From Calditrichaceae bacterium (GTDB taxonomy: Bacteria; Calditrichota; Calditrichia; Calditrichales; Calditrichaceae): a DNA stretch of 27,407 bases. The stretch spans positions 1 to 27,407 of the forward strand of contig JANTFQ010000001.1 in assembly GCA_024763405.1 (NCBI GenBank), given 5' to 3'. This document shows, piece after piece, positions 10,168-27,407 of this stretch. The position numbers were made by a program, and so were the translations under genes. The notes below the pieces were generated by a model. It had not been told where the DNA came from. It worked only from the letters and a program-made list of their open reading frames with translations, and searched no databases. How positions within the stretch are numbered: the stretch's first letter is position 1; each line of letters begins with the position of its first letter.

Positions 10168-10181
10168 ATGCTCACTGTTTT

Positions 10182-10216
10182 AATTACCAATTACCAATTA
10201 CCGATTACCAATTACT
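10182..10216. repeat. Intergenic 7-bp tandem repeat, 5 units (AATTACC x3, GATTACC, AATTACT)
   Basis: Read directly in the 75-bp spacer between NRPS C and NRPS D. Confidence 0.9.
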
Positions 10217-10242
10217 AAAAGCTGATGGCTGACCGCCATAAG

Positions 10243-13200
10243 CTAATCTTCTAATTCTTCTAATAAACCGCCTAATCCATCTTCATCCAAATCCACATCC
10301 GCAAAGTCCGAAGGCGTATAAGCGCCTGCTTCGGGGTCCTGGCAGTGTCGAATCAACACACGTAATTCATCCAGATACTGCGACGTCCAGTTACGGATGG
10401 TCTCCTCAAAGTACTGCTCTTTACTATAAGCAAATGTGATCTGGAAAACATTTTCCAGTACGCTGCCGCCGATTTCTAAAACATGTAGTCTTTCACCATC
10501 CGGACTGCGTTCAAATCCGGGCGCAGTCAGCGGTTTCCCTAATAGTTTATTCTCGGCCGAATTTTGCTGAAATTGACCTAAATAATTAAAACCGATTTCA
10601 GGCTGGATGGTATTTGTAATCAGGCCCTCATTTAGATATTTAAGCAGGCCGAAACTAATTCCGTTATTTGGTATTTCCCGGTATTGTTCTTTTACCGCTT
10701 TAATGGATTCTCCCGGATCGACAATTCCTTTTAGTTGCAAATGAACCGGAAACGCAGAAGTAAACCAGCCAATGGTACGGGAAATATCCACATCTTCGAA
10801 AAGGTCTTCCCGGCCGTGACCCTCCATCTCGATTACTATAGAATCCTGGCCGTGCCAGTATTTTGCCGCACGTACCAAAGCTGTGAGTAAAAGCTCGTTT
10901 ATTTGCGTGTGGTAAGCAGCCGGCGCTTCTTTTAGCAACGCTTCGGTTTCTTCTTCGCTGAGGGCTGCGCGTACAATTTGTGTATCTGCTTCTGTGTTTG
11001 TTCCGTTTTTATCTTTTGGCAACGAAGCAATTTTCTGAGCTGCTATTGTATTCCAAAAATCCAATTCGGAATGGACCGCATCCGATGCAGCGTACTGGTT
11101 TATGCGTTCTGCCCAATATTTAAAGGAAGTCGTCTTAGATGGAAGTTTCGGAGGCTGTCCGGCTGACAACTGCTTATATAACGATAACAAATCTTCTGTT
11201 AAAATTCGCCAGGAGACTACATCCACAACAAGATGATGAATAATGAGCAAGAAGTAATCCGGTTTGTCAACGGCTGTTTTAAAATAAGCCGCCCGCAGCA
11301 GAGGCCCTTTGCTTAGGTCTAACGACATCTTAAGTTTAGTAACCTGCTTTTCCAGCACGGCGTCCATCTGTGCCGGATTTACAGAAGATAAATCTGCTGA
11401 ATGCAGAATATCTTCATTGATTTCCCCGGGAATAACCGCTTCAACGGATCCATTGGAACTGTTGAAACAAGTACGCAGAACATCGTGATGAAAAAAAAGA
11501 TGCCCTAAAACTTTTTTTAGGATACCCGTATCCAGAGGATTTTCGAGCGCTACCATCATCGTCTGATTCCAATGGTGCCTGTTTGGTAAATTTAGATTAA
11601 AAAAGGCATGCTGGATGGCCGTTAATGGAATTGTACCGGTAACCAGCCCCTGCTCAGCCCGGATAGCAACCCCTTCTTTGGCAACGGCGGCCAGACCTTC
11701 AATGGTCGGATTTACAAACATCTGTTTGGGGGTAATTTTTAGCCCGGCCTGATTGGCCCGTGCCACCACCTGGATGCTTAATATAGAATCGCCGCCCAGT
11801 TCGAAGAAGTTGTCGCGAATGCCGATTTTTTCATTACCCAATAAATCTTTCCATATGCGGACGAGAATTTCTTCTTTTTCATTGGAAGGGGCGACAAATT
11901 CACTTTCCAGTTGTTCCCGGGTGACTTCAGGTTCCGGTAATGCTTTTTTATCGACTTTTCCGGTGGCAGCCACAGGCATCTCTTCCAGAAAAATAAAAAA
12001 AGCAGGAACCATATATTCCGGTAAAAAGTCTTTTAGGAAAATCTTTAAATTATTTATAGTTGGTTTCTCATTTCCCTGGCATACCAGGTAAGCAGCAAGT
12101 TTTTTATTGCCAGGCGCACCTTTTGCTAAAACAATGGCGTCGCTAATTTGAGGATGATGCATTAAATTGGATTCGATCTCACCCAGTTCGATGCGGAAAC
12201 CCCGTATTTTAACCTGTTGGTCGATACGACCTAAAAATTCAATATTGCCATCCGGTAAATAGCGGCATAAATCACCGCTGGCATACATTCGGCTGCCAGG
12301 CTCGGAAGAATACGGATCGGGAATAAATCGTTCGGCGCTTAATTCGGGGCGGTTTAAATAGCCCCGGGCAACCCCTACTCCACCAATATACATTTCACCG
12401 GGGACACCCAAAGGGGTTGGATTTAATAGTGGGTCCAGAATATAGATTCGGTAATTCGGAATTGGTTTACCGATGGGAATATTGCTTGCATTTTCTGGTA
12501 ATTTGTTGGTTAAATACCATGTCGCGCAAACCGATGTTTCTGTAGGCCCATAGGCATTCCAGAATTTACGGCCCTTTGACCAATGCTTTACCAGTTCGGG
12601 CGTACAGACATCACCTCCGGAGGCCACCATTTGCAAATCGGGAAATTTATCCGCCGGCAGAACAGACAGGATGGAAGGGGGCAATATGGCATTGGTAAGC
12701 CGGTTATCCCGGATCAGACTGGTTAAACCATTTTCCGGGGCCATCTCATCTTCTGCAACCAGATAAAGTGACGCTCCCGAAAGCAATACTTTAAAGAAAT
12801 CACCGACAGATCCATCAAAACTGTATGAAAAATATTGTATGGCCCGTTTGCCAGGCTCCAGGTTAAACATATCTATATAATCATAGGCTAGATTAATTAC
12901 CGTGTTGTGCTGTAAAAGCACTCCTTTTGGTTTTCCGGTGGAACCGGAGGTATAAATCACATAGCACATATTTTGCGGTTGTACATTTGTCAGCGGGTTG
13001 TCACTGGATTGTTCCGCAATTTTCGACCACTGCTGGTCGAGCTCAATCAGTTCTGCATGAAAAGAATTCAATGTTGGTGTATACTTTTTCTGCGTTAAAA
13101 TGAGTTTCAGGCCTGTATCTTCTGCCATATAGCGTAACCGATCTATGGGATAAGCGGGATCCATCGGCACATAAGCGGCACCGGCTTTAAGAATTCCTAA

Positions 13201-16200
13201 AACCCCAATGACCATTTCGAAAGATCGGCTGACAGACAAGCCCACAAAAGATTCGGAGCGAATGCCTTTTCCGATTAAAAAATGGGCCAGCTGATTGGCT
13301 TTTTTATTTAGCTCCGCATAACTCAATACTTGGTTCTTGTAAACTAAAGCGGGCGCATCCGGAGATAACAGGGTTTGTTTTTCGAATAGTGTGTGCAGGC
13401 AGGAATCCTGCGGAGCCGAGACAGGGGGAACATCATTGAATTCGTTTAATAAAAGTTCTGTTTCCTGTACCTTTAACAGTGGAAGAGCCTGAATGGACAA
13501 ATGTGGATTTTCTGTAGCCGACTGAATTAAATTCTTAAAATGTCCGAGCATCCGTTCCATCGTTGATTGATCAAAGAGATCTGTGTTATATTCCCATTCG
13601 CCGCCTATAATCTTATTGTGCTCGGCCATGGATAAGGTTATATCAAATTTAGCGATGCCGGTATCTATTTCCACCGGTTTAAATGCTAAGTTTTGGATTG
13701 TATTGTCTTGTAAAAACTGGGGCTGATAAGCGAACATTACCTGAAACAGAGGATTGTGGCTTAAACTTCGAGGGGTGTTCAGGGAGTCAACCAGTTTTTC
13801 AAATGGTAAATTCTGATGTGCAAATGCATCTGCTGTACGTTTTTTTAACTGCGTTAATAAAGTGGAAAAGGTTTGGTTTGGATAAAAATCTCCCCGGATT
13901 GCAAGTGTATTAATAAAAAAACCAATCATCGGTTCCAGTTCGGGACGGGTACGGTTAGCAACCGGAGTTCCGACAACAATCGTCTCCTCATTAGAATACC
14001 GGTATAACAATAGCTGAAAAGCGGTCATGAGCACTGTAAATGCTGTGGTTTGTACATTTGCCGCTAGTGCATTTATTTGCGTGGTTAGTTCTTTACCTAA
14101 GTCAAAACGGATACGATCGCCTTTAAATGTCTGTATCGATGGTCGCGGACGATCGGTGGGAAGTTCCAGTAATTCCGGGACGTCCATTAATTCTTTTTTC
14201 CAGAAATCGATTTCCTGGTTTAATACATCACCGCTGAAAAATTTTCGTTGCCACGCTGCGTAATCGACATATTGAAATGCCAGTGGTTCAAGTTTTGGTT
14301 TAATATTCATCGAAAAAGTGCTATAGAATGCCAATATATCTTTTACGATAACTCCAATGGACCACCCATCCGAAACAATATGGTGCATGTTTAGCATCAG
14401 GATAAAATCTTCGTTAGCCAGTTTAAGCAAACCCGATCGGAAGAGCGGTCCCTTCGTCAAATCAAAAGGCTTTACCGATTCTTCCTTACAGTATTTAAGA
14501 GCCGCAGTTTCGGCCTTTTTTAAAGGCATTTCCGAAAAATCCTGGCGATAGACTTGAAAGTCAACAGAGTCGAGAATGGTTTGAAAGGCTTTTCCGTCTT
14601 CTGCGTTAAAAACCGTCCGCAGACTTTCATGTCTTTGTACCAGGGCATGCAGGGCTTTGACAAGAGACGTTTCACTTAAATTGCCTTGAATACGAAGGGC
14701 TGTGGGAATATTGTAATTCGCTTTCCCGGGTTCCAGATTATCCAGAAACCACAAACGCTGCTGAGCAAAAGAGAGTTCGAGTGTCGTGTTTCTCTCGATC
14801 CTCTCAAAAGGCAGATAGGCAGAATGCTTATTTATAACTTGCTCGGAGGATTCTTTTAATTTGGCTATGAACGCCTTACTAATTTTAGATTGATGTAAAT
14901 TTGATTGCACAAATTCAAGTACAGAATCTGGAAAATTCTCTATTAAATATTGGGATAAGCCTGCAATGTGCTTCAATTCAAACATGATAGCTACATTCAG
15001 GTCCACATTAAGCTGTTTCTGCATTCGGTTTATAAAATAGGCCGCTTTTAAGGAATCGCCGCCTAATTGAAAAAAACTGTCAAAAACACTTATTTTTTTA
15101 AGATGCAAGGCGTCTTGCCATATATGTAAAAGAATGGTTTCCAGTTCGTTTCGGGGCGCCTGGTAACCGGGACGTAGCAGTTCCATTTCTTCTGGTACTA
15201 TAAATGCGCGGTAGTCGATTTTCCCATTTTCGGTTAAAGGCATCTTCTCAATTGGAATAAAAAAGGACGGTATCATATAATCGGGAAGAAATTCCTGTAT
15301 CTTCTGAGAAAGAATGGCAGGATCAATTTCCTGTTTATGCTCCGGAATAAAAAATACACAAAGCCTTTGCTTAAATGTTAAAACGACAACATCCTTAATT
15401 TCAGGAAGTTTTCGTATAACGGCTTCTATCTCGCCGGGTTCGATTCGGAATCCCCGCAGTTTTATTTGCCGGTCCACACGTCCTAAAAAGTCGATATTCC
15501 CATCCGGTAAAAACCGGGCACGGTCACCACTGCGGTACAGACGGCTTCCTGGAACGGAACTGAAGGGGTTTGGAATAAATTTTTGCGCCGTTAATTCCGG
15601 CTTTCCAAGATAACCACGGGCCAAACCTGCTCCGGCAATACATAATTCACCACTGATACCAGGCGGAACAGGCTGCAACCGGGAATCCAGAATATAGAGC
15701 TGAGTATTGTTTACTCCTTTACCAATGAGCGGTTTGGAAGAAGTTTCTGTTGCCCCCTTCCCGAAAGCGAAAATAGCCGCATCTACGGTGCATTCGGTTG
15801 GCCCGTAAACATTGTAAAAAGTGATATCGGTATTCGTTCTTAATATATTCCATAATTTGGTTCCGATGGCCTCACCGCCAACCAGAACAATAGCGGGTTG
15901 GTGCTTATTCTTATCGAAAAGACCGGATTCAATCATCAAGCTTAATTGTGACGGGGTGCAGTCTAAGGAATTCACTTTATGCGTGTGGATAAATTCCACC
16001 ATCGCATTCCCATCCAGGCGGGTTTCTTCGGGAATAATATGCAGGGTATGGCCATTCGCTAACTGAATCCATTGTTTCACTGAGGTATCAAATGTTAACG
16101 GTCCGTTTAAGCTAAGGTCTAAATGGTGTTGTTGATGCTTGTAGATTTTATCCTGTAAGGCATAAAATAGATTTAAAAGGGAAGAATGACGGATGCCGAT

Positions 16201-18186
16201 TCCCTTTGGTTGACCCGAAGTGCCGGACGTATAGATGATGTAGGCTAAATTATCAGGATGAAGCGTTCTTTTAATATAGGTTTCAGAAACAGAGTCAATT
16301 TGATCCCATTGGCCGTCGATTAAAATTGGATTTACTTTGAGTTCCAGAAGCTCTTTTTCGAGATTAGCCTGCGTGATAATAATGGAAATATTTGCATCCT
16401 CAATCATCAAACGGGTACGTTCGAGTGGCTGAGCGGGATTAAGAGGAACAAAGGTACCGCCGGCTTTCAGTATCGCCCATAAGGCAATGAACATATCGAT
16501 AGAACGCGCGGTATATAAGCCGACAGGGGTTTCGATCTGAACACCTTGTTCTTGTAAAAACCTGGCTAATCGACTGGATTTTTTATCTAATTCTGAAAAA
16601 GTTAGTGAAGTGTCTCTGTAGACCACAGCGGTTTTTTCAGACATTGTTTTACTGGTTTGCTCAAATAGAGTATGTATTAATGATTGTGTGTTAAGGGCTT
16701 TGTCTGTCTGGTTCCATTTTTGAAGAACCGATTGCTTTTGACTCTCGTCCAGCAGACAAATTCGGTTTACCATAATCTGAGGATTATGAAGCACCTGTTT
16801 CAGAATGTGAAGATAGAGGTCTTTAAAAATTCTGATGGTCTCTGTTTTAAAGAGGCTTGTATTATATGCTATCCTTCCTGATAATTTGTTCTCGCTTTCT
16901 TCTATGGTCAGCGTAATATCATATTTTACGGATTCAATTTCCAAATCCATCAACGAAAGAGAAAGGTCCAGAAGTTCCATTTTGGGCTTCGGGGCATTTT
17001 GGAGTAAAAATAAAATCTGAAAATAAGGAGAACGACTGGAATCGCGTTCGGGATGTAATTCTTCAATAATTTGTTCAAAAGGCAAATCCTGATTAGCAAA
17101 GCCGTCCAAAACTGTATTTTTTATCTGTTGTAAAAGCGCATTAAACGTTTGCTCGTCCGATAGATAGGAACGCATGACCAAAGTATTCATAAAATAACCA
17201 ACCAGCCCGGAAATTTCCGGCCGGTCTCGGTTTGCCATTGCAGTGCCTACATTGATATCTTCCTGGTTTGTATAGCGATACAGAAGTGAAAATAATACAG
17301 CTAATAAAACCATATATGGCGTAACATCCTGCGTACGACAAAACTCCCTTAGCGCAGAAGTGAGTTCTTTGGATATTTCAAAATTAATATGCGAACCAGT
17401 GAAGGTTTGAATAGCGGGCCGGGGATAATCAAAGGGAAAATCTAAAACAGGATGGCAGTTTTTTAATTGTTTCTTCCAATAGTCCATTTGTTTGTCTTTT
17501 TGTGGACTTTTTAACCAATTAAGCTCCCATTGCGCATAATCAGCATATTGGAGAGACAAAGGGGGTAAATCGATCTTGTCTTGTGTTTTAAAATTCTGAT
17601 AAAAATAAGAAAATTCTGGTATTATGACGCCTACTGACCATCCGTCGGCGATTATATGATGCATATTGATGAGTAAAATATGTTCGGTTTCCGAAACACG
17701 CAGGATTGAACTGCGGATTAATGGACCTTTTTCCAGATTAAAAGGTTTGTGAATTTCGGATGCTAAAAAATCCCGTATTTTTTTCTCGATATTATCCTTT
17801 GGGATTGTTGAAAAATCATGTAATTCAATTTTAAGGTTTAATTCTGACCGAATTTTTTGAACTGGCTTTCCATCCACAATACAAAAATAGGACCGCATCA
17901 CTTCATGCCGTCTGATAACGGAATTAAGAGCAAATTCGAGGGCAGTGATATTTGTTTTTCCCTCTAATTTTAAAGCAGACGGCATATTATAGAAGGAGCT
18001 GCTGGGCGCTAACTGTTGAAGAAACCATAATTGCTTCTGTTGAACAGAAACAGGAAAGTCTTGCTTGTTTTCCCGCTTTTCTATTTTTTCCCGCTTTACG
18101 GTTTTGCCTGATTTTTGTAATTTTTTTAATAAAGCTTCACGCTGTGCCGGAGATAATTGAGCAAGTCGTTTTCCAACATCGGCCAT
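10243..18186 (-). CDS. NRPS C, 2647 aa, bimodular: docking helix-C(LCL)-A(Glu-like)-T-C(LCL)-A(unknown)-T-E-COM
   Basis: ORF track. C1 SVQQKQLWFLQQL..HHIIADGWS. A1 code DTKDLGVVDK is one residue from the surfactin Glu code DAKDLGVVDK. T1 is GGDSLKAA. C2 HHIVSDGWS. A2 code is DGGIAGAVCK. T2 GGDSILSIQ is pre-E type. E domain HHLVVDVVSW, EGHGRE, RTIGWFT, FNYLGQF. Tail TPSDF. Confidence 0.97.
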   Translation of the reverse strand: MADVGKRLAQLSPAQREALLKKLQKSGKTVKREKIEKRENKQDFPVSVQQKQLWFLQQLAPSSSFYNMPSALKLEGKTNITALEFALNSVIRRHEVMRSYFCIVDGKPVQKIRSELNLKIELHDFSTIPKDNIEKKIRDFLASEIHKPFNLEKGPLIRSSILRVSETEHILLINMHHIIADGWSVGVIIPEFSYFYQNFKTQDKIDLPPLSLQYADYAQWELNWLKSPQKDKQMDYWKKQLKNCHPVLDFPFDYPRPAIQTFTGSHINFEISKELTSALREFCRTQDVTPYMVLLAVLFSLLYRYTNQEDINVGTAMANRDRPEISGLVGYFMNTLVMRSYLSDEQTFNALLQQIKNTVLDGFANQDLPFEQIIEELHPERDSSRSPYFQILFLLQNAPKPKMELLDLSLSLMDLEIESVKYDITLTIEESENKLSGRIAYNTSLFKTETIRIFKDLYLHILKQVLHNPQIMVNRICLLDESQKQSVLQKWNQTDKALNTQSLIHTLFEQTSKTMSEKTAVVYRDTSLTFSELDKKSSRLARFLQEQGVQIETPVGLYTARSIDMFIALWAILKAGGTFVPLNPAQPLERTRLMIEDANISIIITQANLEKELLELKVNPILIDGQWDQIDSVSETYIKRTLHPDNLAYIIYTSGTSGQPKGIGIRHSSLLNLFYALQDKIYKHQQHHLDLSLNGPLTFDTSVKQWIQLANGHTLHIIPEETRLDGNAMVEFIHTHKVNSLDCTPSQLSLMIESGLFDKNKHQPAIVLVGGEAIGTKLWNILRTNTDITFYNVYGPTECTVDAAIFAFGKGATETSSKPLIGKGVNNTQLYILDSRLQPVPPGISGELCIAGAGLARGYLGKPELTAQKFIPNPFSSVPGSRLYRSGDRARFLPDGNIDFLGRVDRQIKLRGFRIEPGEIEAVIRKLPEIKDVVVLTFKQRLCVFFIPEHKQEIDPAILSQKIQEFLPDYMIPSFFIPIEKMPLTENGKIDYRAFIVPEEMELLRPGYQAPRNELETILLHIWQDALHLKKISVFDSFFQLGGDSLKAAYFINRMQKQLNVDLNVAIMFELKHIAGLSQYLIENFPDSVLEFVQSNLHQSKISKAFIAKLKESSEQVINKHSAYLPFERIERNTTLELSFAQQRLWFLDNLEPGKANYNIPTALRIQGNLSETSLVKALHALVQRHESLRTVFNAEDGKAFQTILDSVDFQVYRQDFSEMPLKKAETAALKYCKEESVKPFDLTKGPLFRSGLLKLANEDFILMLNMHHIVSDGWSIGVIVKDILAFYSTFSMNIKPKLEPLAFQYVDYAAWQRKFFSGDVLNQEIDFWKKELMDVPELLELPTDRPRPSIQTFKGDRIRFDLGKELTTQINALAANVQTTAFTVLMTAFQLLLYRYSNEETIVVGTPVANRTRPELEPMIGFFINTLAIRGDFYPNQTFSTLLTQLKKRTADAFAHQNLPFEKLVDSLNTPRSLSHNPLFQVMFAYQPQFLQDNTIQNLAFKPVEIDTGIAKFDITLSMAEHNKIIGGEWEYNTDLFDQSTMERMLGHFKNLIQSATENPHLSIQALPLLKVQETELLLNEFNDVPPVSAPQDSCLHTLFEKQTLLSPDAPALVYKNQVLSYAELNKKANQLAHFLIGKGIRSESFVGLSVSRSFEMVIGVLGILKAGAAYVPMDPAYPIDRLRYMAEDTGLKLILTQKKYTPTLNSFHAELIELDQQWSKIAEQSSDNPLTNVQPQNMCYVIYTSGSTGKPKGVLLQHNTVINLAYDYIDMFNLEPGKRAIQYFSYSFDGSVGDFFKVLLSGASLYLVAEDEMAPENGLTSLIRDNRLTNAILPPSILSVLPADKFPDLQMVASGGDVCTPELVKHWSKGRKFWNAYGPTETSVCATWYLTNKLPENASNIPIGKPIPNYRIYILDPLLNPTPLGVPGEMYIGGVGVARGYLNRPELSAERFIPDPYSSEPGSRMYASGDLCRYLPDGNIEFLGRIDQQVKIRGFRIELGEIESNLMHHPQISDAIVLAKGAPGNKKLAAYLVCQGNEKPTINNLKIFLKDFLPEYMVPAFFIFLEEMPVAATGKVDKKALPEPEVTREQLESEFVAPSNEKEEILVRIWKDLLGNEKIGIRDNFFELGGDSILSIQVVARANQAGLKITPKQMFVNPTIEGLAAVAKEGVAIRAEQGLVTGTIPLTAIQHAFFNLNLPNRHHWNQTMMVALENPLDTGILKKVLGHLFFHHDVLRTCFNSSNGSVEAVIPGEINEDILHSADLSSVNPAQMDAVLEKQVTKLKMSLDLSKGPLLRAAYFKTAVDKPDYFLLIIHHLVVDVVSWRILTEDLLSLYKQLSAGQPPKLPSKTTSFKYWAERINQYAASDAVHSELDFWNTIAAQKIASLPKDKNGTNTEADTQIVRAALSEEETEALLKEAPAAYHTQINELLLTALVRAAKYWHGQDSIVIEMEGHGREDLFEDVDISRTIGWFTSAFPVHLQLKGIVDPGESIKAVKEQYREIPNNGISFGLLKYLNEGLITNTIQPEIGFNYLGQFQQNSAENKLLGKPLTAPGFERSPDGERLHVLEIGGSVLENVFQITFAYSKEQYFEETIRNWTSQYLDELRVLIRHCQDPEAGAYTPSDFADVDLDEDGLGGLLEELED
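10340..11630 (-). other. Epimerization domain of NRPS C (approximate bounds)
   Basis: LTAIQHAFF, HHLVVDVVSWRIL, MEGHGRE, RTIGWFTSAFP, FNYLGQF; preceded by a GGDSI-type T domain. Confidence 0.92.
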
Positions 18187-18187
18187 A

Positions 18188-21100
18188 TTAATCCTCGTCT
18201 AATTCAGAAAAAAGATCTTCTAAAGCCTCTTCATTCAAATCAACGTCCTGGAAATCTGACGGTGTATATACGCCGCCGGCGTCATTTTTCAAAAAGGCCA
18301 GGAGTTTAATTAATTCCCCTTCGTAAAGGGCTAGAAATTTTTTAATGGATTCTGTTCTAAATTGATTCTTACTGTACATAATATCAATTAAAAGGTTTTT
18401 CCCTTTTATACTGGCGCTGATTTCGAGCAGATAACTGCGACGTGACCTGGGGCTGCGTTCGTCATCATTAAAACCAGCCAGAGGTTTAAACAGGCTTAAT
18501 TCCTCCGAATCAGGCTGGAATTGTCCGAGATAATTGAATACAATTTCGGGATTCTGTAAAGCTTTTAATTTTTCAGAGAAATCACTCCTAAGGTATTTTA
18601 ATATCCCAAAACCAATGCCATTGTTCGGAATATTGCGTAATTGCTCTTTAACAGCGATAATGGATTTTCCGGTTTCGCTCATTTGTGAAAGATCCAGGAA
18701 AACAGGATACATACTAGTAAACCAGCCAACGGTGCGGGCCAGGCTAACCTCTTCCATAATATCTTCGCGTCCATGACCTTCCATCGCCAGCCAGATTCTG
18801 CTGTGACCGCTCCAGATTTTAAAGGCCTTAATCAAAGCGGTCAGCAGAATATCATTAATCTGCGTATTATAAACCGTATGCGCACCCCGCAGCAGATATT
18901 CGGTCTCCGTTTCATCCAGAACAGTCGAAACAACGGCTGCAGAAGCTTCTGTATTTTCACCATCCGGAAAATCAGGAACCAATTTATCAAAGCGCTTTTC
19001 AGCCAGCGTGTTCCAATAGGGGATTTCTTCCTGTAATTTTTTATTATCCGCGTAAGCCGATAATTTTTCCGTCCATTGTTTAAAGGAAGTGGTCTTTGCC
19101 GGTAAAACCAGTTCGGCGTTTGCCGTTAATTGTCCGTATGCAGTTTGCATGTCTTCACTCAAAATGCGCCAGGAAAGACCGTCGACCGCCAGATGATGGA
19201 CTGCAATGAAAATGAGGTCATTTTTTCCGCTTCCGCGCTTAAAAATTGCTGCCTTAATAATAGGGCCGGTCTCAAGATTTAGTGAACTTTGTAATTTAGA
19301 AATCTGTCTATGAATATTTTCTGACTGAGCAGGCTCCTCTAATTTCGATAAATCAAATATAGAAATCAAATCCGATTCTTCTTTCTCTTCAATTTTTGCC
19401 TGCCAGATTTGATCGGTTTTCCAGAAGCGTAATCGCAGTGCATCATGATGTTCCACTATTTTTTTGATAACCTGAGATAATATCGTTTCATCCACGGAAG
19501 CGGCCGCTTCTAACATGAGGGACTGGTTCCAGTGCCAGGGCTCCGGATGATTCTGATTAAAAAATTCAATCTGGATAGGAGATAAAAGCACCGGACCCGA
19601 AACAGTACCTTGTTCGGCTTCTATTCTTTTGGTCTGTTCAGCAACCGCGGCCAGGCTCTCAATGGTCGGATTTTCAAACATCTGCTTCGGTGTAATGCGT
19701 AAACCGGCCTGGCCGGCGCGGGCCACCACCTGGATGCTTAAAATAGAATCGCCGCCCAGCTCGAAGAAATTATCCCGCGTGCCAATCTGTTCGATGCCAA
19801 GAACCGCTTTCCATGTTTCGCTAAGAATTTTTTCTTTATCCGTGGAAGCTTCGATAAATTCAGTTCCCAAATCCGAACGGTCAAATTCCGGTTCTGGAAG
19901 CGCCCGACGGTTTACTTTTCCGTTGGGCAATAGTGGAAAAGCGTTTAAAGTAACGAAAGCAGCGGGCACCATATATTCGGGCAGAGTTTCTTTCAGGAAG
20001 CTGCGTATTTCAGGTATTTCAATATTTTTGTCCCTTTCCGCAACCAGGTAGGCGGCCAGCCGTTTGTCGCCCTCTTTTACTTCGCGCACAAGAACAACCG
20101 CATCTTTTACCGATTCGTGTTCCCTCAAACGGGATTCTATTTCGCCCAGTTCCATTCGGAATCCGCGCAGTTTTACCTGATGGTCCACCCGGCCGAGAAA
20201 CTCTACATTGCCGTCGGAAAGCCAGCGCACTAAATCGCCGGTCTTGTACATACGCGCCGCTTTGTCTTTGCAAAACGGATCGGCTATAAATTTTTCGGCA
20301 GTCAGTTCGGGACGGTTTAAATACCCTCTTGCCAACCCGTCTCCGGCGATGTATAACTCGCCTGCGGCTCCGACAGGAACCGGCTGCCCGCTTTGATCCA
20401 GGATGTAAAAGCGCGCGTTTGAAACAGGTTTTCCGATGACCGGGCGCAGTGGGCTGCTTTGTACATTACAAATAGTGGAATCAACCGTACATTCGGTCGG
20501 TCCGTACATATTGAAAAAAAGTATGTCCTTCGAGTCGACCAGTTTTTTCCAGGTTACCTCGTCGATGGCTTCGCCGCCGGGCAGAACCGCCAGCGGTTTC
20601 CATTCATCAGCATCCAGCAATCCAGCGTCTAATAGTAATTTTAGCTGTGCGGGTACACAATCCAGAACTTGGATCTTATATTTTCGGATATAGTCCAGCA
20701 TCGTATCACCGCTGCCTCGTGTTTCCATAGGAATAATTTGTAATCCGTGGCCGTGTGCCAGCATCACAATCTGCTGAACCGATGCATCAAAAGGTATGGG
20801 TGCATTTAAGCTTATTTTTAATTTTGTATTTCCAAAACAGCTGTAAATGGTTTGCTTTAAATTCTCTGCCAGGTGTAAAGCTGATTTATGGGAAATCATA
20901 ACCCCTTTGGGCTTTCCGGTGGAGCCGGAGGTGTAAATTATGTACGCCAGACTGTCTGTACTCTGCGTTAAATTTGGATTTTGAACAGATTCATTTGAGA
21001 TTTCCGCTCCCACCGTATCCAGAGCGATGACGCGCGTATTCGTTAACGCTAAATCAGTCACGGTCTCGGAATGAGTCAGCAGAAAGGGAACATGGGCGTC

Positions 21101-24100
21101 TGTAAGCATAAAATCGAGCCGTTCCTCTGGATAGGCCGGATCCAGCGGCAGATAGGCGCAGCCGGCTTTCCAGATGGCCAGCATGCTGACAATCATGTCG
21201 GTGGAGCGTTCCATTAAAATGCCGATAATGCTTTCTTGTTTTACCCCGGATTTTAATAGAAAAGAAGCAACCTGATTGGCGCGGGCGTTCAACTGTTCAA
21301 AGTTCAGCGTTTCGTCATTAATGCCTGCGGCAAATTGCTGAGGTTGTATTTTGGCCTGTTTTTCAATCAGATGATGGAGACATTTATCGGTCGGGTAATC
21401 AAGCATAGCGGGACGCCACTCAACGAGCATTTTATGCTGTTCCTCTTCTTTTAACAGAGGCAGCTCGGAAATATTTTGATCAGGATTTCGGACAATGGAT
21501 TCAAGAAGCGTGGTAAAATGACCCATTATTCGCTGGATGGTTTCTTCCTTAAACAGGCTGGTTTTATATTCCAGAATGGCAACCATGCGATTGGTATGCT
21601 CAATAATTTCTAAATTCAGATCAAATTTAGCGGTTTCTGTTTCAATGGCAAAAGGGGAGTAAGAGAGTTCTTCTAAATGTATTTCCTGAATATCCGAATG
21701 CTGCATGGAAAACATAACCTGAAAGAGTGGCGTATGGTTCATTTCCCGTTCCGGCTGGAGTGTGTCCACTAATTTTTCGAAGGGCATGTCCTGATGGTCA
21801 AAAGCGTCCATTGCTATTTTTTTGACCAGCCGTAGATGATGCCGGAATGAGCGGTTTTTGTTTATTGTACTGCGTAACACCAGGGTATTTACAAAAAAGC
21901 CAATTAATGGTTCAATTTCTCTGCGGTTACGGTTTGCCACCGGCGTCCCGATAGTAAAATCATCCTGGCCGGAATAGCGGTAGAGTAGGGTTTCGAATGC
22001 TGTCAGCAGAACCATAAATAAGGTGGTTTCGTGCTCTTTACTCAGTTGATTCAGTTGTTGGTAGAGGGCATCCGGTACACGATGCACCAACCGTTTTCCC
22101 TGATATGAAACCATAGCAGGTCTGGGAAAATCAGTAGGTAGTTCCAAAAAGAAGGAAGCGCCATCCAACTGTTTTTTCCAGAACGTCATTTCGTTTTCCA
22201 GGCGCGAACCGCTTAACCACTGACGTTGCCAGGCTGCAAAATCGGCATATTGAATTTGTAACGGAGTCAAAGGAATGGGTTCGTCTTTTATCAGCGCGTT
22301 GTAGATAAGTGAAAGTTCCCTAACCAGTACATTGACAGACCAGCCGTCGGATATAATATGATGCACCGTAATCATCAGTATATATTCCTGATCGGAAATT
22401 TTAAAAAGTTTGGCTCGTATCAACGGCGCCTTGCTCAAATCGAACGGTTTAGCAGATTCCTGATTGGCCCGTAGAATGAGATCGCTATCCGAAACACCGG
22501 CAGAATCTACGACCGGTAAGTCCAATTTTAATTGCGGTAAAATAACCTGCGATGCTTTTCCTTCTGCTGAGCTGCGAAAAATGGTACGAAGATTTTCGTG
22601 GCGCTGAACAATAAGATTTAAAGCCTGCAACATCTTTTCGACATCGAGTGTACCTTTGAGGCGAATAGCTCCCGGAATATTGTATTGTGGATTCCCTGGT
22701 TCCATTTGATCCAGGAACCACAAACGCTGTTGAGCAAAGGAAAGAGGCAGCTCGTCTGTTCGCGGAATGACCGGGATGCCTTGTATGGCAGTCGATTGAG
22801 AATGGGCAATATTCTTTTCCACAGGATAGCCGAACGCTTTAGCCAGTTCCCAGGTTATATCGCTTAAAAAATTATTTTTATGATGTTCACGCCAACGATC
22901 GGTGACGCTGGTATCGATATTTTTATGTAAATAAAATTTAAAATCGCCCACCATCTGAGAATGTTTACTCACCCCGTCTGTCATTTTATTACCCTGATAG
23001 GGTTTCAGCATATCCGGTTCAAAATCGATGTCTATAAAATTGCATATTCGCAGCATTTCGTTATACGGATCGAGTAATAGATCTTCAAAACGTAACCGTA
23101 TCTTTCGTTCATCGGGAATATCCTGTAAAAAGCGATTTATGTTTTGGTGACTGATAATATAGATCAATTCACCCAGTTCCCGCCGGGTAAAAGGATGTTC
23201 ATAACGAAAGAAATTCTGATCCAGTTTAGCTTCGATAAAAGAATACACCATGGCATAGGGATGCCGCAATAAATGGATGTACTTAGCCTGAGTAAAGTCC
23301 TGTTCCGCACGTTTTAAAATTTCAGGGTCAAAAGGATAAGTGGGCGATTTATCTACTAATATGCGGTCACCCATCCATTCCTGCAATGTGCGGTAATATT
23401 CTTTTACGCTCATATTCTGCGCCACAAAACCATCCATAATCCGGCGTGCCTCATCCACATCGGTCTGTTTTAATTCCTTGATAGCGCGGATGGTTGCTTC
23501 CAACCAGATTTCCAGGCCTTCTTCTGAAAAAGCTTCCCTGCGTTCCCGCACTGTGTTAAAAGAAAGCAAATCAAGTTCCGGCGGGGAGAAAAGTTTTTGA
23601 TTGCCGGCCAGCATCACGCGCAGCAGGGTAGAACCGGAACGCGGCGGGGATAGAACAAAGATGGCTGAAGGGTTTTTAGTAGAATCTGTTTCCGTACGTT
23701 GCGGCAGAGGCGTAATGATTTTTCGAATAGTGTCAATCTGTGGTTGTCCGATTTTATGCACTACTTCTTCGGCGACGTCAATCAGTTTATAAAGTTGATG
23801 AACCGATTCGTCTAATTCGAAACGTTCGCGGGTCAATTGCGGGTAATAATTAACAATATATCCGGCTAACTCGGCGATGGTCGGCGCTTTAAATACGACG
23901 CTTACATGGGTCACTTCGCCAAATTCTTTTTGCAAACGGTTGGCAAATACAGCGGCCTTTAATGAATTTCCGCCCAGTTCAAAAAAATTGTCGTGGATTC
24001 CTACTCTATCAATCGTCAAAATTTCGCCCCAAATCTCGGACAGAAATTGCTCTAGATTATTTCGGGGAGCCGTATATTGGGCTTCCATATCCGGACGTGC

Positions 24101-27100
24101 GTGACCAGGGGCAGGCAAAGCGTTTTTATCCACTTTCCCGTTTGGCGTTAACGGAATGCTGTCCATTTCCACCCAGGCAAAAGGAACCATATAATCGGGC
24201 AGTTTTTCGAGCAGGAAAGCACGTAGAACAGATGTTTTTATCTCCTGTTTTTCATTGGGAACAATATAAGCCGTTAGTACTTTGTCACCAGGATTATCCT
24301 GGCGCGCCAAAACCACGGCGTCTTTAAGCAGAGGATTTGTTTTTAAAACGGACTCAATTTCTCCCAGTTCAATCCGAAACCCGCGAATTTTTACCTGCTG
24401 ATCGATACGGGCCAGAAATTCAATATTTCCATCCGGAAGCCAGCGTACCAGGTCGCCGGTTTTATACAGCATTGAATTGCCGGAAGGGTCAAACGGGTTT
24501 TTTATAAAACGTTCGGCGGTTAACTCTTTCCGTTTCAAATATTCTAAAGCGAGGCCATCGCCACCCACATATAATTCACCCGGGATGCCAATTGGGACTA
24601 CCTGTATTTTTTTATTGAATACATACATCGTTGAATTCGCGATTGGTTTCCCGATTGGCACATTTGTGTCTGTTTCAGCAATTTTTTTAACTTTATACCA
24701 GGTAGAAAAAGTAGTGTTTTCCGTAGGACCATATACGTGTAATAAATTTTGTGGTGGTTCTGAGAGCGCTATTTTTCGAACAGAAGACGGATCCACCATT
24801 TCTCCGCCGAACATTACGGTATCCAGTGTTTTAAATGCGGAGGAATTCTCAGCGGCAATCTGGTTGAAAAGAGCGGTTGTTAGAAAAAGATGGCTAATTT
24901 CCTTATCCTTTAAAGCCTGAATAAAACTCTGTGTGGAAAGCATCACATCTTTTGGAATAGCAACGAGCCTGGCGCCGTTTAGTAAAGCGCCCCAGATTTC
25001 AAAAGTGGCAGCGTCAAAAGCAGCGTTTGACGCCTGAGCAATATTATGATTTGCTTTGATACGTACATAATCGGTATTTATAACCAGACGAATAACTGCC
25101 CGGTGGGGAACGATAACACCCTTTGGAATTCCGGTTGAACCGGAAGTGTAAATAATGTAGGCGCGATCTAAAGGTTTAGATAATACGGCAAGTGATTCGG
25201 CACTATAATCGGCAAGTAATTGGTCGTTGTCAATAGCCAAAGAAACGGCGCTGCCTTCGGGAAGATCGTCCAAAAGTTCCGTTTTTGTAAGTAATAATGA
25301 GGCCTCGGTATCTTTGAGGATAAATGATAAACGGTCCTTTGGATAAGAGATATCTAATGGAACATAAGCTGCTCCGGCTTTTAAGATGGCAAGGAAACCA
25401 ATGATCATATCCATCGAGCGCTCCATATAAAGAGCAACAAGATGACCGGGCTCCACCCCTTTCTCAATCAATAAATGGGCGAGTTGATTTGATTTGCTGT
25501 TTAATTCTTTATAAGTATAACTGAGGCTGTCATAGCGAACTGCAATCGCATCCGGTGTCTTTGCAACCTGCTGTTCAAATAATTCGGGAATGGAAGAGTC
25601 GGCCGGATAATTTGTAGCGGTCTGATTCCATTCGGTTAAAATGCGTGTTTGTTCTTTCTCGGAAATCAATGAAAGATTGGATATTTTCTCACTTGGATTG
25701 TTGAGTGCATTTTTGAGTAAGGTATGGAAATAACTGCTAAAACGACTGATGGTCTCTTCCGAGAACAGGTCGCGGTTATATTCAAAGGTACATTTGATAT
25801 GGTCCTCATGCTCGAGCATCAGAAGCAACAGGTCAAATTTGGCGACTTCTACTTCAATATCAACGATTTCGAGCGTAATCGAATCCATTGTAACACGTTC
25901 AAACGGTACCGTTTGTAAATCGAACATCACCTGAAAGAGCGGGGAATGCCCTAATTGAGGAGCGCCTGAAACGGATTCAACAATTTTTTCGAAGGGCACA
26001 TCCTGATTGTCGGAAGCGGTGATTACATCATTTTTAACACGCTGTATCAATTCGGCAAAGGTCATATCCGTTCTAAAATCAGCCCGTAAGACAACGGTGT
26101 TTACGAATAATCCAATGATGGATTCAATCTCGGCCCGGTTGCGGTTGGCAATGGGAGCGCCAACGCCAAAATCATCCTGCCCGCTGACTTTGTGCAGGAA
26201 TACCTGAAAAACAGCCATAATCAGAGCATACAGGGAAACTCCTTGTTCACGGCTCAGACGTCGCATCTTTTCGGTCAGTGCTTTTTTAATGGTAAAAAGG
26301 TGCTGGCGGCCGTTGTAAGTCTGGAAATCCGGACGGGGATAATCCGTATATAAATCTAAAAAATCGGGCATTCCCGATAAAGCATTTTTCCAGTACTGAA
26401 GCTGTTTCTCGATGGTGTTTCCAACAGCTCGTTCGGCCTGCCAGGCGGCATAATCCGCATATTGCAAATGCAAATCGGGTAATTCTGTTTGTGGTTCCTT
26501 TACAAGAATTCGATAATTGGAAATAATCTCATTTATAATAATTCCGATAGACCAGCCATCCGTGACAATATGATGGATGTCCAAACTGAGTACATACTGG
26601 CCTGGTTTGATTTTTAAAATGAACGATCGAATCAGCGGCGGGTTCGTCAAATCAAAAGGTTTGGCAGCGTCTTCTTTTAATAATTCCTGTATACGCTGAT
26701 CCATCTGCGCGGCAGGGGTGTTGCTAATGTCAATTTTAGGAATATCAATTTTATAGTTAGAAACGATAATCTGTTCCGCTTCGCCTTTTTCGTTGGTCAT
26801 AAAACCGGCGCGTAATACTTCGTGGCGGCGGATAATTTCATGGATACTTTTTCTTAAAATTTCCAGGTCGATATTGCCCGTTAACCGAATCGCCGAAGGA
26901 ATATTATAAAAGGCCGAATCCGGATCGAGTTGGTTCATAAACCACAAGCGCATCTGTGAAGATGAAATAGGGTACCGATGCTGTTCTTTTCTCTTCGTAA
27001 TCCGTCTGTTTTTTTGATCCGGTTTTTTTTGCGCTTGAAGTTTTTTTAGCAGCAGTTCGCGCTTTTCCGGAGAGAGTCCGGCCAATCGTTTGTGTATAGC

Positions 27101-27106
27101 TGACAT
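18188..27106 (-). CDS. NRPS B, 2972 aa: docking helix-C(LCL)-A(Ile-like)-T-sulfotransferase-C(LCL)-A(Gln)-T-E-COM
   Basis: ORF track. C1 HHIVTDGWS. A1 code DAFFMGVTFK is close to Ile codes DAFFLGVTFK/DAFFYGITFK. T1 is GGNSLKAA. A ~290-aa insert carries PPRSGSTLLRVMLAG. C2 HHIISDGWS. A2 code DAQDLGMVDK is close to the lichenysin Gln code DAQDLGVVDK. T2 GGDSILSIQ. E domain HHLAVDGLSW, EGHGRE, RTVGWFT. Tail TPSDF. Confidence 0.97.
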   Translation of the reverse strand: MSAIHKRLAGLSPEKRELLLKKLQAQKKPDQKNRRITKRKEQHRYPISSSQMRLWFMNQLDPDSAFYNIPSAIRLTGNIDLEILRKSIHEIIRRHEVLRAGFMTNEKGEAEQIIVSNYKIDIPKIDISNTPAAQMDQRIQELLKEDAAKPFDLTNPPLIRSFILKIKPGQYVLSLDIHHIVTDGWSIGIIINEIISNYRILVKEPQTELPDLHLQYADYAAWQAERAVGNTIEKQLQYWKNALSGMPDFLDLYTDYPRPDFQTYNGRQHLFTIKKALTEKMRRLSREQGVSLYALIMAVFQVFLHKVSGQDDFGVGAPIANRNRAEIESIIGLFVNTVVLRADFRTDMTFAELIQRVKNDVITASDNQDVPFEKIVESVSGAPQLGHSPLFQVMFDLQTVPFERVTMDSITLEIVDIEVEVAKFDLLLLMLEHEDHIKCTFEYNRDLFSEETISRFSSYFHTLLKNALNNPSEKISNLSLISEKEQTRILTEWNQTATNYPADSSIPELFEQQVAKTPDAIAVRYDSLSYTYKELNSKSNQLAHLLIEKGVEPGHLVALYMERSMDMIIGFLAILKAGAAYVPLDISYPKDRLSFILKDTEASLLLTKTELLDDLPEGSAVSLAIDNDQLLADYSAESLAVLSKPLDRAYIIYTSGSTGIPKGVIVPHRAVIRLVINTDYVRIKANHNIAQASNAAFDAATFEIWGALLNGARLVAIPKDVMLSTQSFIQALKDKEISHLFLTTALFNQIAAENSSAFKTLDTVMFGGEMVDPSSVRKIALSEPPQNLLHVYGPTENTTFSTWYKVKKIAETDTNVPIGKPIANSTMYVFNKKIQVVPIGIPGELYVGGDGLALEYLKRKELTAERFIKNPFDPSGNSMLYKTGDLVRWLPDGNIEFLARIDQQVKIRGFRIELGEIESVLKTNPLLKDAVVLARQDNPGDKVLTAYIVPNEKQEIKTSVLRAFLLEKLPDYMVPFAWVEMDSIPLTPNGKVDKNALPAPGHARPDMEAQYTAPRNNLEQFLSEIWGEILTIDRVGIHDNFFELGGNSLKAAVFANRLQKEFGEVTHVSVVFKAPTIAELAGYIVNYYPQLTRERFELDESVHQLYKLIDVAEEVVHKIGQPQIDTIRKIITPLPQRTETDSTKNPSAIFVLSPPRSGSTLLRVMLAGNQKLFSPPELDLLSFNTVRERREAFSEEGLEIWLEATIRAIKELKQTDVDEARRIMDGFVAQNMSVKEYYRTLQEWMGDRILVDKSPTYPFDPEILKRAEQDFTQAKYIHLLRHPYAMVYSFIEAKLDQNFFRYEHPFTRRELGELIYIISHQNINRFLQDIPDERKIRLRFEDLLLDPYNEMLRICNFIDIDFEPDMLKPYQGNKMTDGVSKHSQMVGDFKFYLHKNIDTSVTDRWREHHKNNFLSDITWELAKAFGYPVEKNIAHSQSTAIQGIPVIPRTDELPLSFAQQRLWFLDQMEPGNPQYNIPGAIRLKGTLDVEKMLQALNLIVQRHENLRTIFRSSAEGKASQVILPQLKLDLPVVDSAGVSDSDLILRANQESAKPFDLSKAPLIRAKLFKISDQEYILMITVHHIISDGWSVNVLVRELSLIYNALIKDEPIPLTPLQIQYADFAAWQRQWLSGSRLENEMTFWKKQLDGASFFLELPTDFPRPAMVSYQGKRLVHRVPDALYQQLNQLSKEHETTLFMVLLTAFETLLYRYSGQDDFTIGTPVANRNRREIEPLIGFFVNTLVLRSTINKNRSFRHHLRLVKKIAMDAFDHQDMPFEKLVDTLQPEREMNHTPLFQVMFSMQHSDIQEIHLEELSYSPFAIETETAKFDLNLEIIEHTNRMVAILEYKTSLFKEETIQRIMGHFTTLLESIVRNPDQNISELPLLKEEEQHKMLVEWRPAMLDYPTDKCLHHLIEKQAKIQPQQFAAGINDETLNFEQLNARANQVASFLLKSGVKQESIIGILMERSTDMIVSMLAIWKAGCAYLPLDPAYPEERLDFMLTDAHVPFLLTHSETVTDLALTNTRVIALDTVGAEISNESVQNPNLTQSTDSLAYIIYTSGSTGKPKGVMISHKSALHLAENLKQTIYSCFGNTKLKISLNAPIPFDASVQQIVMLAHGHGLQIIPMETRGSGDTMLDYIRKYKIQVLDCVPAQLKLLLDAGLLDADEWKPLAVLPGGEAIDEVTWKKLVDSKDILFFNMYGPTECTVDSTICNVQSSPLRPVIGKPVSNARFYILDQSGQPVPVGAAGELYIAGDGLARGYLNRPELTAEKFIADPFCKDKAARMYKTGDLVRWLSDGNVEFLGRVDHQVKLRGFRMELGEIESRLREHESVKDAVVLVREVKEGDKRLAAYLVAERDKNIEIPEIRSFLKETLPEYMVPAAFVTLNAFPLLPNGKVNRRALPEPEFDRSDLGTEFIEASTDKEKILSETWKAVLGIEQIGTRDNFFELGGDSILSIQVVARAGQAGLRITPKQMFENPTIESLAAVAEQTKRIEAEQGTVSGPVLLSPIQIEFFNQNHPEPWHWNQSLMLEAAASVDETILSQVIKKIVEHHDALRLRFWKTDQIWQAKIEEKEESDLISIFDLSKLEEPAQSENIHRQISKLQSSLNLETGPIIKAAIFKRGSGKNDLIFIAVHHLAVDGLSWRILSEDMQTAYGQLTANAELVLPAKTTSFKQWTEKLSAYADNKKLQEEIPYWNTLAEKRFDKLVPDFPDGENTEASAAVVSTVLDETETEYLLRGAHTVYNTQINDILLTALIKAFKIWSGHSRIWLAMEGHGREDIMEEVSLARTVGWFTSMYPVFLDLSQMSETGKSIIAVKEQLRNIPNNGIGFGILKYLRSDFSEKLKALQNPEIVFNYLGQFQPDSEELSLFKPLAGFNDDERSPRSRRSYLLEISASIKGKNLLIDIMYSKNQFRTESIKKFLALYEGELIKLLAFLKNDAGGVYTPSDFQDVDLNEEALEDLFSELDED
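18192..18196 (-). promoter_or_regulatory. Putative Shine-Dalgarno (GAGGA) for NRPS C, inside the last codons of NRPS B
   Basis: GAGGA-TTAAT-ATG. The B stop and C start are separated by 1 nt, consistent with translational coupling. Confidence 0.65.
18290..19590 (-). other. Epimerization domain of NRPS B (approximate bounds)
   Basis: LSPIQIEFF, HHLAVDGLSWRIL, MEGHGRE, RTVGWFTSMYP, FNYLGQF; preceded by a GGDSI-type T domain. Confidence 0.93.
22817..23677 (-). other. Embedded PAPS-dependent sulfotransferase domain (CurM/Ols ST-like) within NRPS B
   Basis: Sequence shows IFVLSPPRSGSTLLRVMLAG (5'-phosphosulfate-binding loop), FSPPEL, LVDKSPTY, YIHLLRHPY (3'-phosphate-binding region), RFEDL, DFEPDMLKPYQG and MTDGV. 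These match the motif order of curacin CurM and olefin-synthase ST domains as I recall them. Confidence 0.92.
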
Positions 27107-27146: not shown

Positions 27147-27407
27147 CTATTCATCATTTAGCAGTTTTTCGAGTTCTTCATCGGATAAATCTTCGATTTC
27201 GGACAGCATCGATTCCAGTTCGTCACTATCCTGGTATTCGGCCTGGGCCTCTGTAATGGAAAGGGCAATTCCTTCCACGGTTGGTTTTTCAAATAAGGTG
27301 CGCAGCGAAATTTCCACATCAAACTCTTCGCGAATACGTGAGACTACCTGTGTGGCCATCATCGAATGACCGCCCAAATCAAAGAAACTGTCCTTAACGC
27401 CGGCCTT
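27147..27407 (-). CDS. NRPS (or hybrid PKS/NRPS) A, C-terminal fragment only: T domain + acidic docking helix
   Basis: Frame is open to the window edge: KAGVKDSFFDLGGHSMMATQVVSRIREEF...LSEIEDLSDEELEKLLNDE*. The ORF-track TTG start at 27377 is internal. Confidence 0.93.
   Translation of the reverse strand, partial: KAGVKDSFFDLGGHSMMATQVVSRIREEFDVEISLRTLFEKPTVEGIALSITEAQAEYQDSDELESMLSEIEDLSDEELEKLLNDE

Follow-up and report, generated by a model that had tools for sequence, protein, structure and literature searches.

Two adjacent bimodular subunits as possible parallel occupants of one slot in a Calditrichaceae peptide assembly line

Subunits B and C at the locus

The stretch of DNA analysed here (the window) comprises 27,407 nucleotides of a Calditrichaceae bacterium and constitutes the entire contig C1 (JANTFQ010000001.1) of a metagenome-assembled genome (MAG; GCA_024763405.1) of 402 contigs and 72.6% completeness. 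It encodes part of a nonribosomal peptide synthetase (NRPS) line, whose subunits in the window we name A to E. An earlier note on this DNA had proposed that two neighbours among them, B and C, are interchangeable, with A loading either one and both delivering to D. All four long open reading frames of the window lie on the minus strand; the genes are the following.

27147..27407, minus strand: 3' end of subunit A, its final 86 codons (261 bases), with the end of a thiolation (T) domain, an acidic two-helix docking tail and the stop codon
18188..27106, minus strand: subunit B, 2972 aa
10243..18186, minus strand: subunit C, 2647 aa
3700..10167, minus strand: subunit D, 2155 aa
3..3731, minus strand: subunit E, 3'-open at the contig end

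A single base separates the stop codon of B from the start codon of C (TAA-T-ATG). The intergenic spacer between C and D, at 10170-10232, is a run of GGTAATT/GGTAATC units.

Architectures were assigned with Pfam and domain BLAST, the same annotation being applied to relatives, and specificity codes of the adenylation domains were taken from an alignment. Subunit B consists of a docking head, a condensation-adenylation-T module, a Sulfotransfer_3 domain (the sulfotransferase, ST), a second such module closed by an epimerization domain, and a tail. Subunit C runs head, condensation-adenylation-T, condensation-adenylation-T-epimerization, tail. In each of them both condensation domains belong to the LCL class. 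The common bimodular plan described in the earlier note, with an acidic tail of the communication-mediating (COM) type and the ST domain in B only, is borne out. So is the likeness of the ends and of the first T domains (T1): the heads agree in 15 of 19 residues (four differences), the tails in 16 of 27 counted from G-x-YTPSDF, and both T1 domains have the common form GG(N/D)SLKAA.F.NR.QK.

The catalytic domains of B and C are 37-44% identical, with head and tail identity well above this range, so that the two ends are conserved beyond background. A recent tandem duplication of B as the origin of C was ruled out, both by the low identity of the catalytic domains and by the C-type subunits forming old clades of their own. 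Orthologues of B occur in KSB1 and Calditrichota, with 47-68% identity along their whole length. The parts of B and C that matter below, with the head of D, are as follows.

27026..27106, minus strand: N-terminal docking head of B, about 27 aa, a basic helix-turn-helix around LSPEKR
22847..23686, minus strand: ST domain of B, Pfam PF13469 at 8.9e-26, between T1 and the second condensation domain
18257..19606, minus strand: epimerization domain of B, HHxxxD and EGHGRE intact
18191..18274, minus strand: C-terminal tail of B, acidic, COM-donor-like, from YTPSDF to the end
18106..18186, minus strand: N-terminal docking head of C, of the B class by position-specific scoring matrix (PSSM)
16723..18060, minus strand: first condensation domain of C, LCL class, HHIIADG intact
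14782..14928, minus strand: linker between T1 and the second condensation domain of C, a scar with about 330 aa of ST domain missing
10246..11643, minus strand: epimerization domain of C with its acidic COM-donor-like tail, orthologous to that of the same-genus C
10093..10167, minus strand: N-terminal head of D, basic, COM-acceptor-like, running into the LSPMQQGMLFH motif

The specificity codes of B read DAFFMGVTFK in the first adenylation domain, which we take to be Ile/Val-like, and DAQDLGMVDK in the second, presumably Gln. In C they read DTKDLGVVDK, which we assume to be Glu-like, and DGGIAGAVCK, matched to no amino acid. Subunit D has a short basic head, a DCL-class condensation domain followed by adenylation and T domains, an LCL module and an acidic two-helix tail; the code of its second adenylation domain, DAWTIAAVCK, presumably stands for Phe.

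Occupancy of the slot between A and D

A search with the ST region returned matches in MAGs of Calditrichota/Calditrichaceae and KSB1, in 36 of the 86 genomes of the phylum, and about 20 related Calditrichota/KSB1 clusters were retrieved and annotated. Seven clusters, all from KSB1 (G001, G005, G008, G032, G033, G035 and G038), have the order A-B-D without C. The order A-B-C-D occurs in this MAG and eight others (G024, G023, G007, G006, G019, G002, G003 and G004), as read from single contigs or from matching contig ends. In a third type, found in G010 (a complete single-contig genome of 4.98 Mb) and G017, A is fused to a second T domain and an ST, and is followed by one bimodule and then by D. 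The fused subunit, condensation (LCL)-adenylation-T-T-ST, has about 1565 aa and ends there; the remainder of B is gone (G010:C1 at about 1.67 Mb, G017:C6).

The ST domains form two sister clades, B-type and C-type, with support of 99 each, and the ST domain of B in the window lies in the B-type clade. Because the ST on the A fusion of G010 and G017 is B-type and the bimodule after it C-type, the third arrangement is a remnant of B followed by C. In G054 the sole bimodule between A and D is C-type by its ST domain and by both condensation domains. Comparison of homologous clusters was the check that the earlier note had suggested, and between A and D the relatives do have B alone, a C-type subunit alone or the two together; from this pattern of presence and absence it follows that all three versions of one line exist. 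The clusters with one of the two subunits are otherwise intact (seven with B only, one with the C-type only, two with a B remnant and the C-type), and we assume that they are functional.

In the condensation-domain tree, the second condensation domains of B and C form one clade (99) without those of A, D, E and F, and the first ones fall into one B clade and two C clades. The epimerization domains of B and C intermix, being sisters in G007 and G004. Judged by these trees and by position, B and C are homologues of one slot. In G006 (contig C5) the epimerization domains of B and C are nearly identical, with branch lengths of 0.03 and 0.015, which suggests gene conversion or recent copying of the exit end in that genome.

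The rest of the line is spread over three further NRPS or polyketide synthase (PKS) contigs of the MAG. Contig C131 holds a PKS and one condensation domain. Contig C13 holds a subunit ending in condensation-adenylation-T-epimerization with a basic tail, a 450-aa gene, a second bimodule that starts with a DCL domain, and a subunit that starts with an LCL domain. On C59, the end of a subunit (adenylation-T-condensation-adenylation-T-thioesterase, TE) is followed, at 4475-9818, by an MFS transporter, a type II thioesterase and two free-standing Sulfotransfer_3 proteins of 361 and 358 aa. In the same-genus G024 a single 164-kb contig covers the cluster from end to end, running PKS, A, B, C, D, E, a 451-aa gene, a second D-like subunit D' and F-TE; this confirms the order of the contigs and shows that B, C and D follow one another with no part lacking. 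The A tail in the window is near-identical to that of the complete 1121-aa A subunit of G024.

Subunit E has the architecture head-LCL-adenylation-T-LCL, with a head of a different class, VLASLSPEKRKLLEQRL, and stops with the contig at the HHxxxD of its second condensation domain. A 5'-open subunit on C13 (13223-17353) begins about 35 residues further into a condensation domain, and the two are probably one gene of 2.65 kaa split by assembly (compare the 2638-aa E of G024). The 450-aa gene of C13, at 11794-13143, lies between the epimerization-terminated subunit with the basic tail and the second DCL subunit; it matches Por_Secre_tail, a sorting domain of type IX secretion, and weakly Big_9. 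In relatives this position is taken by a gene of 451-657 aa.

Condensation classes, docking ends and the routing of the chain

The reading that we favour, with a probability of roughly 0.55, is that B and C are slot-equivalent and that the chain would pass from A to D through either of them in parallel. The line would then run PKS, A, B or C, D, E, D' and F-TE, as a large PKS/NRPS lipopeptide line. The chain on the single-module A would be taken up by either B or C through their shared head class; the bimodule would add two residues, epimerize the second and hand the D-configured chain to D, its acidic COM-type tail pairing with the basic head of that DCL-starting subunit. Two congeners of equal length would result, differing in two adjacent residues: an Ile/Val-like residue and D-Gln by way of B, a Glu-like residue and an unassigned D-residue by way of C. 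This builds on the architectures, the domain and docking classes, the pattern in relatives and the number of DCL domains; which head binds which tail, and that both routes run in the cell, we infer from them.

The first condensation domain of C lies outside the DCL clade in the condensation-domain trees (support 100). Against references from the PDB it scores 291 bits with the LCL domain of TycC and 296-304 with Txo1/2, versus 110-134 with SrfA-C, TycB and McyB. The first condensation domain of D behaves in reverse (McyB 402 bits, SrfA-C 292, TycB 269, TycC 104) and falls inside the DCL clade (support 100). SrfA-C, TycB and McyB are DCL references, which follow epimerization domains, and TycC and Txo1/2 are LCL references. 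The epimerization domain of B keeps HHxxxD and EGHGRE in all eight B+C genomes where it is assembled. As C starts with an LCL domain while B ends in an intact and selectively maintained epimerization domain, C is ill-fitting after B.

This bears on an alternative that the order of the genes brings to mind, a serial colinear line from A through B and C to D, in which C is an inserted bimodule and the peptide two residues longer. There, the acidic tail of B would dock on the basic head of C, and the LCL domain of C would take the L-epimer or tolerate the D-epimer. Ahead of an L-selective condensation domain there would be no point in an epimerization domain that all B+C genomes keep intact and under purifying selection, and the LCL class of the first condensation domain of C is unambiguous. 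Moreover, C-type subunits stand directly after A in G054, G010 and G017, where their first condensation domain follows the unepimerized A module.

The number of acceptors points in the same direction. Five B+C genomes, of which four reach a completeness of at least 95%, were searched genome-wide, and each yielded exactly two DCL-class domains (at least 431 bits, the next match at most 165) and no third one; the same genomes have three epimerization-terminated subunits. One such subunit is therefore left without a DCL partner of its own. The third of them, which has a basic tail, precedes the second DCL subunit, whose head differs from that of D. With one of the two DCL domains paired with the basic-tail donor, a single downstream acceptor remains to be shared. 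We considered whether the surplus subunit is an artefact of fragmented MAGs; this was ruled out by the order B-C-D, which G024 (164 kb) and G023 (92 kb) each show on one contig, and by the absence of a third DCL domain from the genome-wide searches.

The exit ends agree with this count. In both B and C, the epimerization domain with HHxxxD and EGHGRE is followed by YTPSDF and an acidic tail, as in COM-type donors, and D has the short head running into a DCL-class domain that is typical of COM-type acceptors. The junction from B to C is not of this type, since C opens with a helical head of the form LSP..R, followed by a condensation domain of the LCL class. Every B and C tail belongs to the acidic class that, in the seven clusters with B only, adjoins the basic head of D, and the D head is conserved (K.NIEA[IV]YPLSP) in all relatives, with either B or C before D.

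For the entry ends, position-specific profiles were made of the B class, from the B-only clusters alone, and of the E and A classes; in a leave-one-out trial they assigned 34 of the 35 training heads correctly. All 11 C-type heads, the one of the window included, score best as B class. The C head of the window scores 50.6 with the B class, 20.5 with the E class and 0.4 with the A class; the B head scores 52.6, 35.6 and 27.0, respectively. E heads keep their own form from KSB1 to Calditrichota. The tail of B and the head of C have both stayed within the classes found at the A-B and B-D junctions of the B-only clusters, so that even in a serial line short-cuts from A to C and from B to D would be expected. 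The serial reading requires at once that the B tail binds the C head, that an LCL domain works after a maintained epimerization domain, and that A does not load a C with a B-class head.

Several observations weigh against two parallel routes. The gene order and the one-base junction of B and C are equally expected of a colinear serial line. The LCL domain of C could in principle select the L-epimer from the T domain of B. The acidic helix in the tail of B is similar to helix one of the A tail, which makes docking of the B tail on the C head possible. Heads of the LSPEKR type and two-helix tails with LS(D/E)EE occur at three consecutive junctions (PKS-A, A-B and D-E) of a colinear KSB1 cluster, and since a docking class is reused in this way, membership in it is no proof of partner choice. 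Profiles tell A tails from D tails only in part (11 of 14 and 11 of 13 correct in leave-one-out trials, with two A tails mis-anchored and one D tail blank in the set). The B and C heads show no signal of concerted evolution, the identity between B and C being 0.58 within and 0.57 between genomes. A predicted complex between the A tail (45 aa) and the head of C (50 aa) scored 0.14, below the mark of 0.34; this gives no verdict and counts on neither side.

These points change what the heads can tell. The LSPEKR..LL core is also found in the E head and in the heads of other subunits in relatives, so that the similarity of the B and C heads is partly a signature of the docking class. The two heads are in one profile class without being identical, and the class is used elsewhere in the line. 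The step in the earlier note from similar heads to interchangeable subunits does not hold when taken alone, given the KSB1 cluster. We also dropped co-adaptation of the B and C heads to one partner as an argument, the identities within and between genomes being alike (B heads compared between genomes also give 0.58). The broader proposal, that A loads B or C and both deliver to D, is carried by the slot pattern, the B-class heads of C, its LCL start and the two DCL acceptors; it is held back by the insufficiency of head similarity and the incomplete separation of A and D tails.

On the side of the serial line there are, besides the gene order and the one-base gap, the stability of the A-B-C-D arrangement across at least six genera and the amphipathic acidic helix of the B tail, like the helix of the A tail that heads of the B/C class presumably bind. 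Peptide length also varies in the family, the last subunit having three or four modules. Taken with the condensation classes and the short-cuts, we consider this line unlikely, though it deserves serious weighing.

The resemblance of A and D tails also leaves room for a non-colinear order by way of the D tail, such as A-B-D-C-D-E, or a C fed by D and not by A. For the A tail of the window, the A-tail profile gives 81 bits, the D-tail profile 55 and the PKS-tail profile 17. The tail of C fits the D head only, which would force D to act twice, there is no third DCL acceptor, and heads of the E class, kept from KSB1 to Calditrichota, follow D in every cluster. Such an order is very improbable.

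Turnover, sulfotransferases and known systems

Between the C subunits of the window and of G024, about 17 of the first 20 residues of the head match, and the part from the second T domain through the epimerization domain to the tail is orthologous, with 60-82% identity. From the first condensation domain to the second adenylation domain, the two (the latter on G024:C52) are only 20-50% identical, and C of the window belongs there to another C lineage, grouping with the C subunits of G023, G003 and G006. By these comparisons, recombination has swapped the catalytic interior of C and kept its connectors. In G024 and G007, which belong to different genera, the C subunits are almost identical in the first and second condensation domains and in ST (branch lengths 0.005-0.02), and the B subunits are far apart; this suggests a recent horizontal exchange of the C cassette.

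Both genes of the window are under purifying selection. The ratio of nonsynonymous to synonymous substitution rates (dN/dS) against the G024 orthologues is 0.13 for the epimerization domain of B, 0.14 for that of C and 0.04-0.15 for all domains compared, with dS near saturation.

Turnover at the slot could also mean that one subunit is used at a time, or at all, and that the other is redundant, differentially expressed or being lost. An in-frame TAA in the second adenylation domain of B in G024, the reduction of B to a T-ST remnant in G010 and G017 and the loss of ST from C of the window would fit this. The TAA (G024:C52 at about 109.6 kb), where the window has GAA, is a single base and, like the split of the second DCL subunit in that genome, reflects either decay or a consensus error of the MAG. 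Neither gene is interrupted in the window and no catalytic motif is damaged, the low dN/dS holds for each orthologous domain compared, and the B+C arrangement persists in many genera; we regard the use of a single copy as improbable.

Returning to parallel use of B and C, we tentatively extend it: co-resident mid-line bimodules may compete for one donor and reconverge on one acceptor, and the slot may be a recombination hot spot, a natural plug-in cassette system. Hot spot is meant here in the sense that the catalytic interior would be exchanged between genomes and the docking head and the epimerization-tail end kept.

The loss of ST from C can be followed in the same alignments. The T1 domain of C and the linker leading to the ST align with those of the ST-bearing C subunits of G023, G003 and G006, with about 330 residues absent, and the same-genus C of G024 has its ST. 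By this alignment, the loss is a recent deletion specific to this MAG. Since the loss is recent and the cluster has two free-standing sulfotransferases, the clean split into a sulfated and a non-sulfated series that the earlier note had drawn is unwarranted; the product may carry several sulfates. Its 'Ile + sulfate' is chemically unexplained as well, the in-line ST sitting in a module with an Ile-like code. In the region of the first adenylation domain, T1 and ST of B (22847-25591), the Ile/Val-like code offers no hydroxyl for a sulfate. The codes of the corresponding B subunits in G032 and G035 read Ser (DVWH.SL.DK).

Alternative subunits are known from other lines. In the anabaenopeptin pathway of Anabaena sp. 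90, as far as the account in PMC8402340 goes (Rouhiainen et al. 2010), the starter subunits AptA1 and AptA2 are adjacent alternatives, bimodular and epimerization-terminated, which pass their chains to one common subunit and yield congeners; in related strains a single copy is present, and products and adenylation specificities were measured. B and C resemble them as two adjacent homologous subunits of one architecture, bimodular and each epimerization-terminated, with relatives that have a single copy. AptA1 and AptA2, being starters, share an exit connector only, whereas the mid-line B and C need both a shared entry partner, A, and a shared exit partner, D. Their pathway is also characterised by its products, while B and C are known from their genes.

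The alternative downstream subunits of the vatiamide pathway reportedly carry like docking domains. One upstream carrier subunit is proposed there to serve several downstream subunits (Moss et al. 2019, Angew Chem, as cited in PMC10127204). The common traits are one upstream subunit, several acceptors with like docking domains and natural combinatorial products; the vatiamide PKS module reportedly branches to NRPS ends that finish their own products, whereas the branches through B and C would reconverge on D. In the rhabdopeptide/xenortide NRPS (Hacker et al. 2018, PMC6195595), similar docking domains let subunits combine in several orders and yield product libraries. Set against B and C by its description in that source, this system differs in its docking fold, its single-module subunits and their iterative use.

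For the exit, the likeness is to the COM domain pairs of the tyrocidine, gramicidin and surfactin synthetases (Hahn & Stachelhaus 2004, PMC524835). As in these pairs, the donor is an epimerization domain with a short acidic helix after TPSDF, the acceptor is a short segment running into a DCL domain, and two orthogonal pairs, with acidic and basic donors, occur in one line. In contrast to them, two donors would share one acceptor in a native cluster, as read here from sequence. Two donors on one acceptor have reportedly been created artificially in COM-swap experiments.

A literature search found no paper on an NRPS product of Caldithrix or Calditrichota, nor on these clusters, and its matches for Calditrichota with NRPS were survey papers only. 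Documented alternative subunits are found at starter positions, or at branch points that end in separate products. New here would be the internal position of the alternative cassette, flanked by matched partners, together with comparative evidence of cassette exchange. The family itself comprises natural B-only, C-only and B+C versions. If B and C are indeed used in parallel, product prediction from gene order by colinearity would be wrong for these clusters, and an internal two-module cassette that has to match both of its neighbours would offer NRPS engineering of the split-and-recombine kind a natural template.

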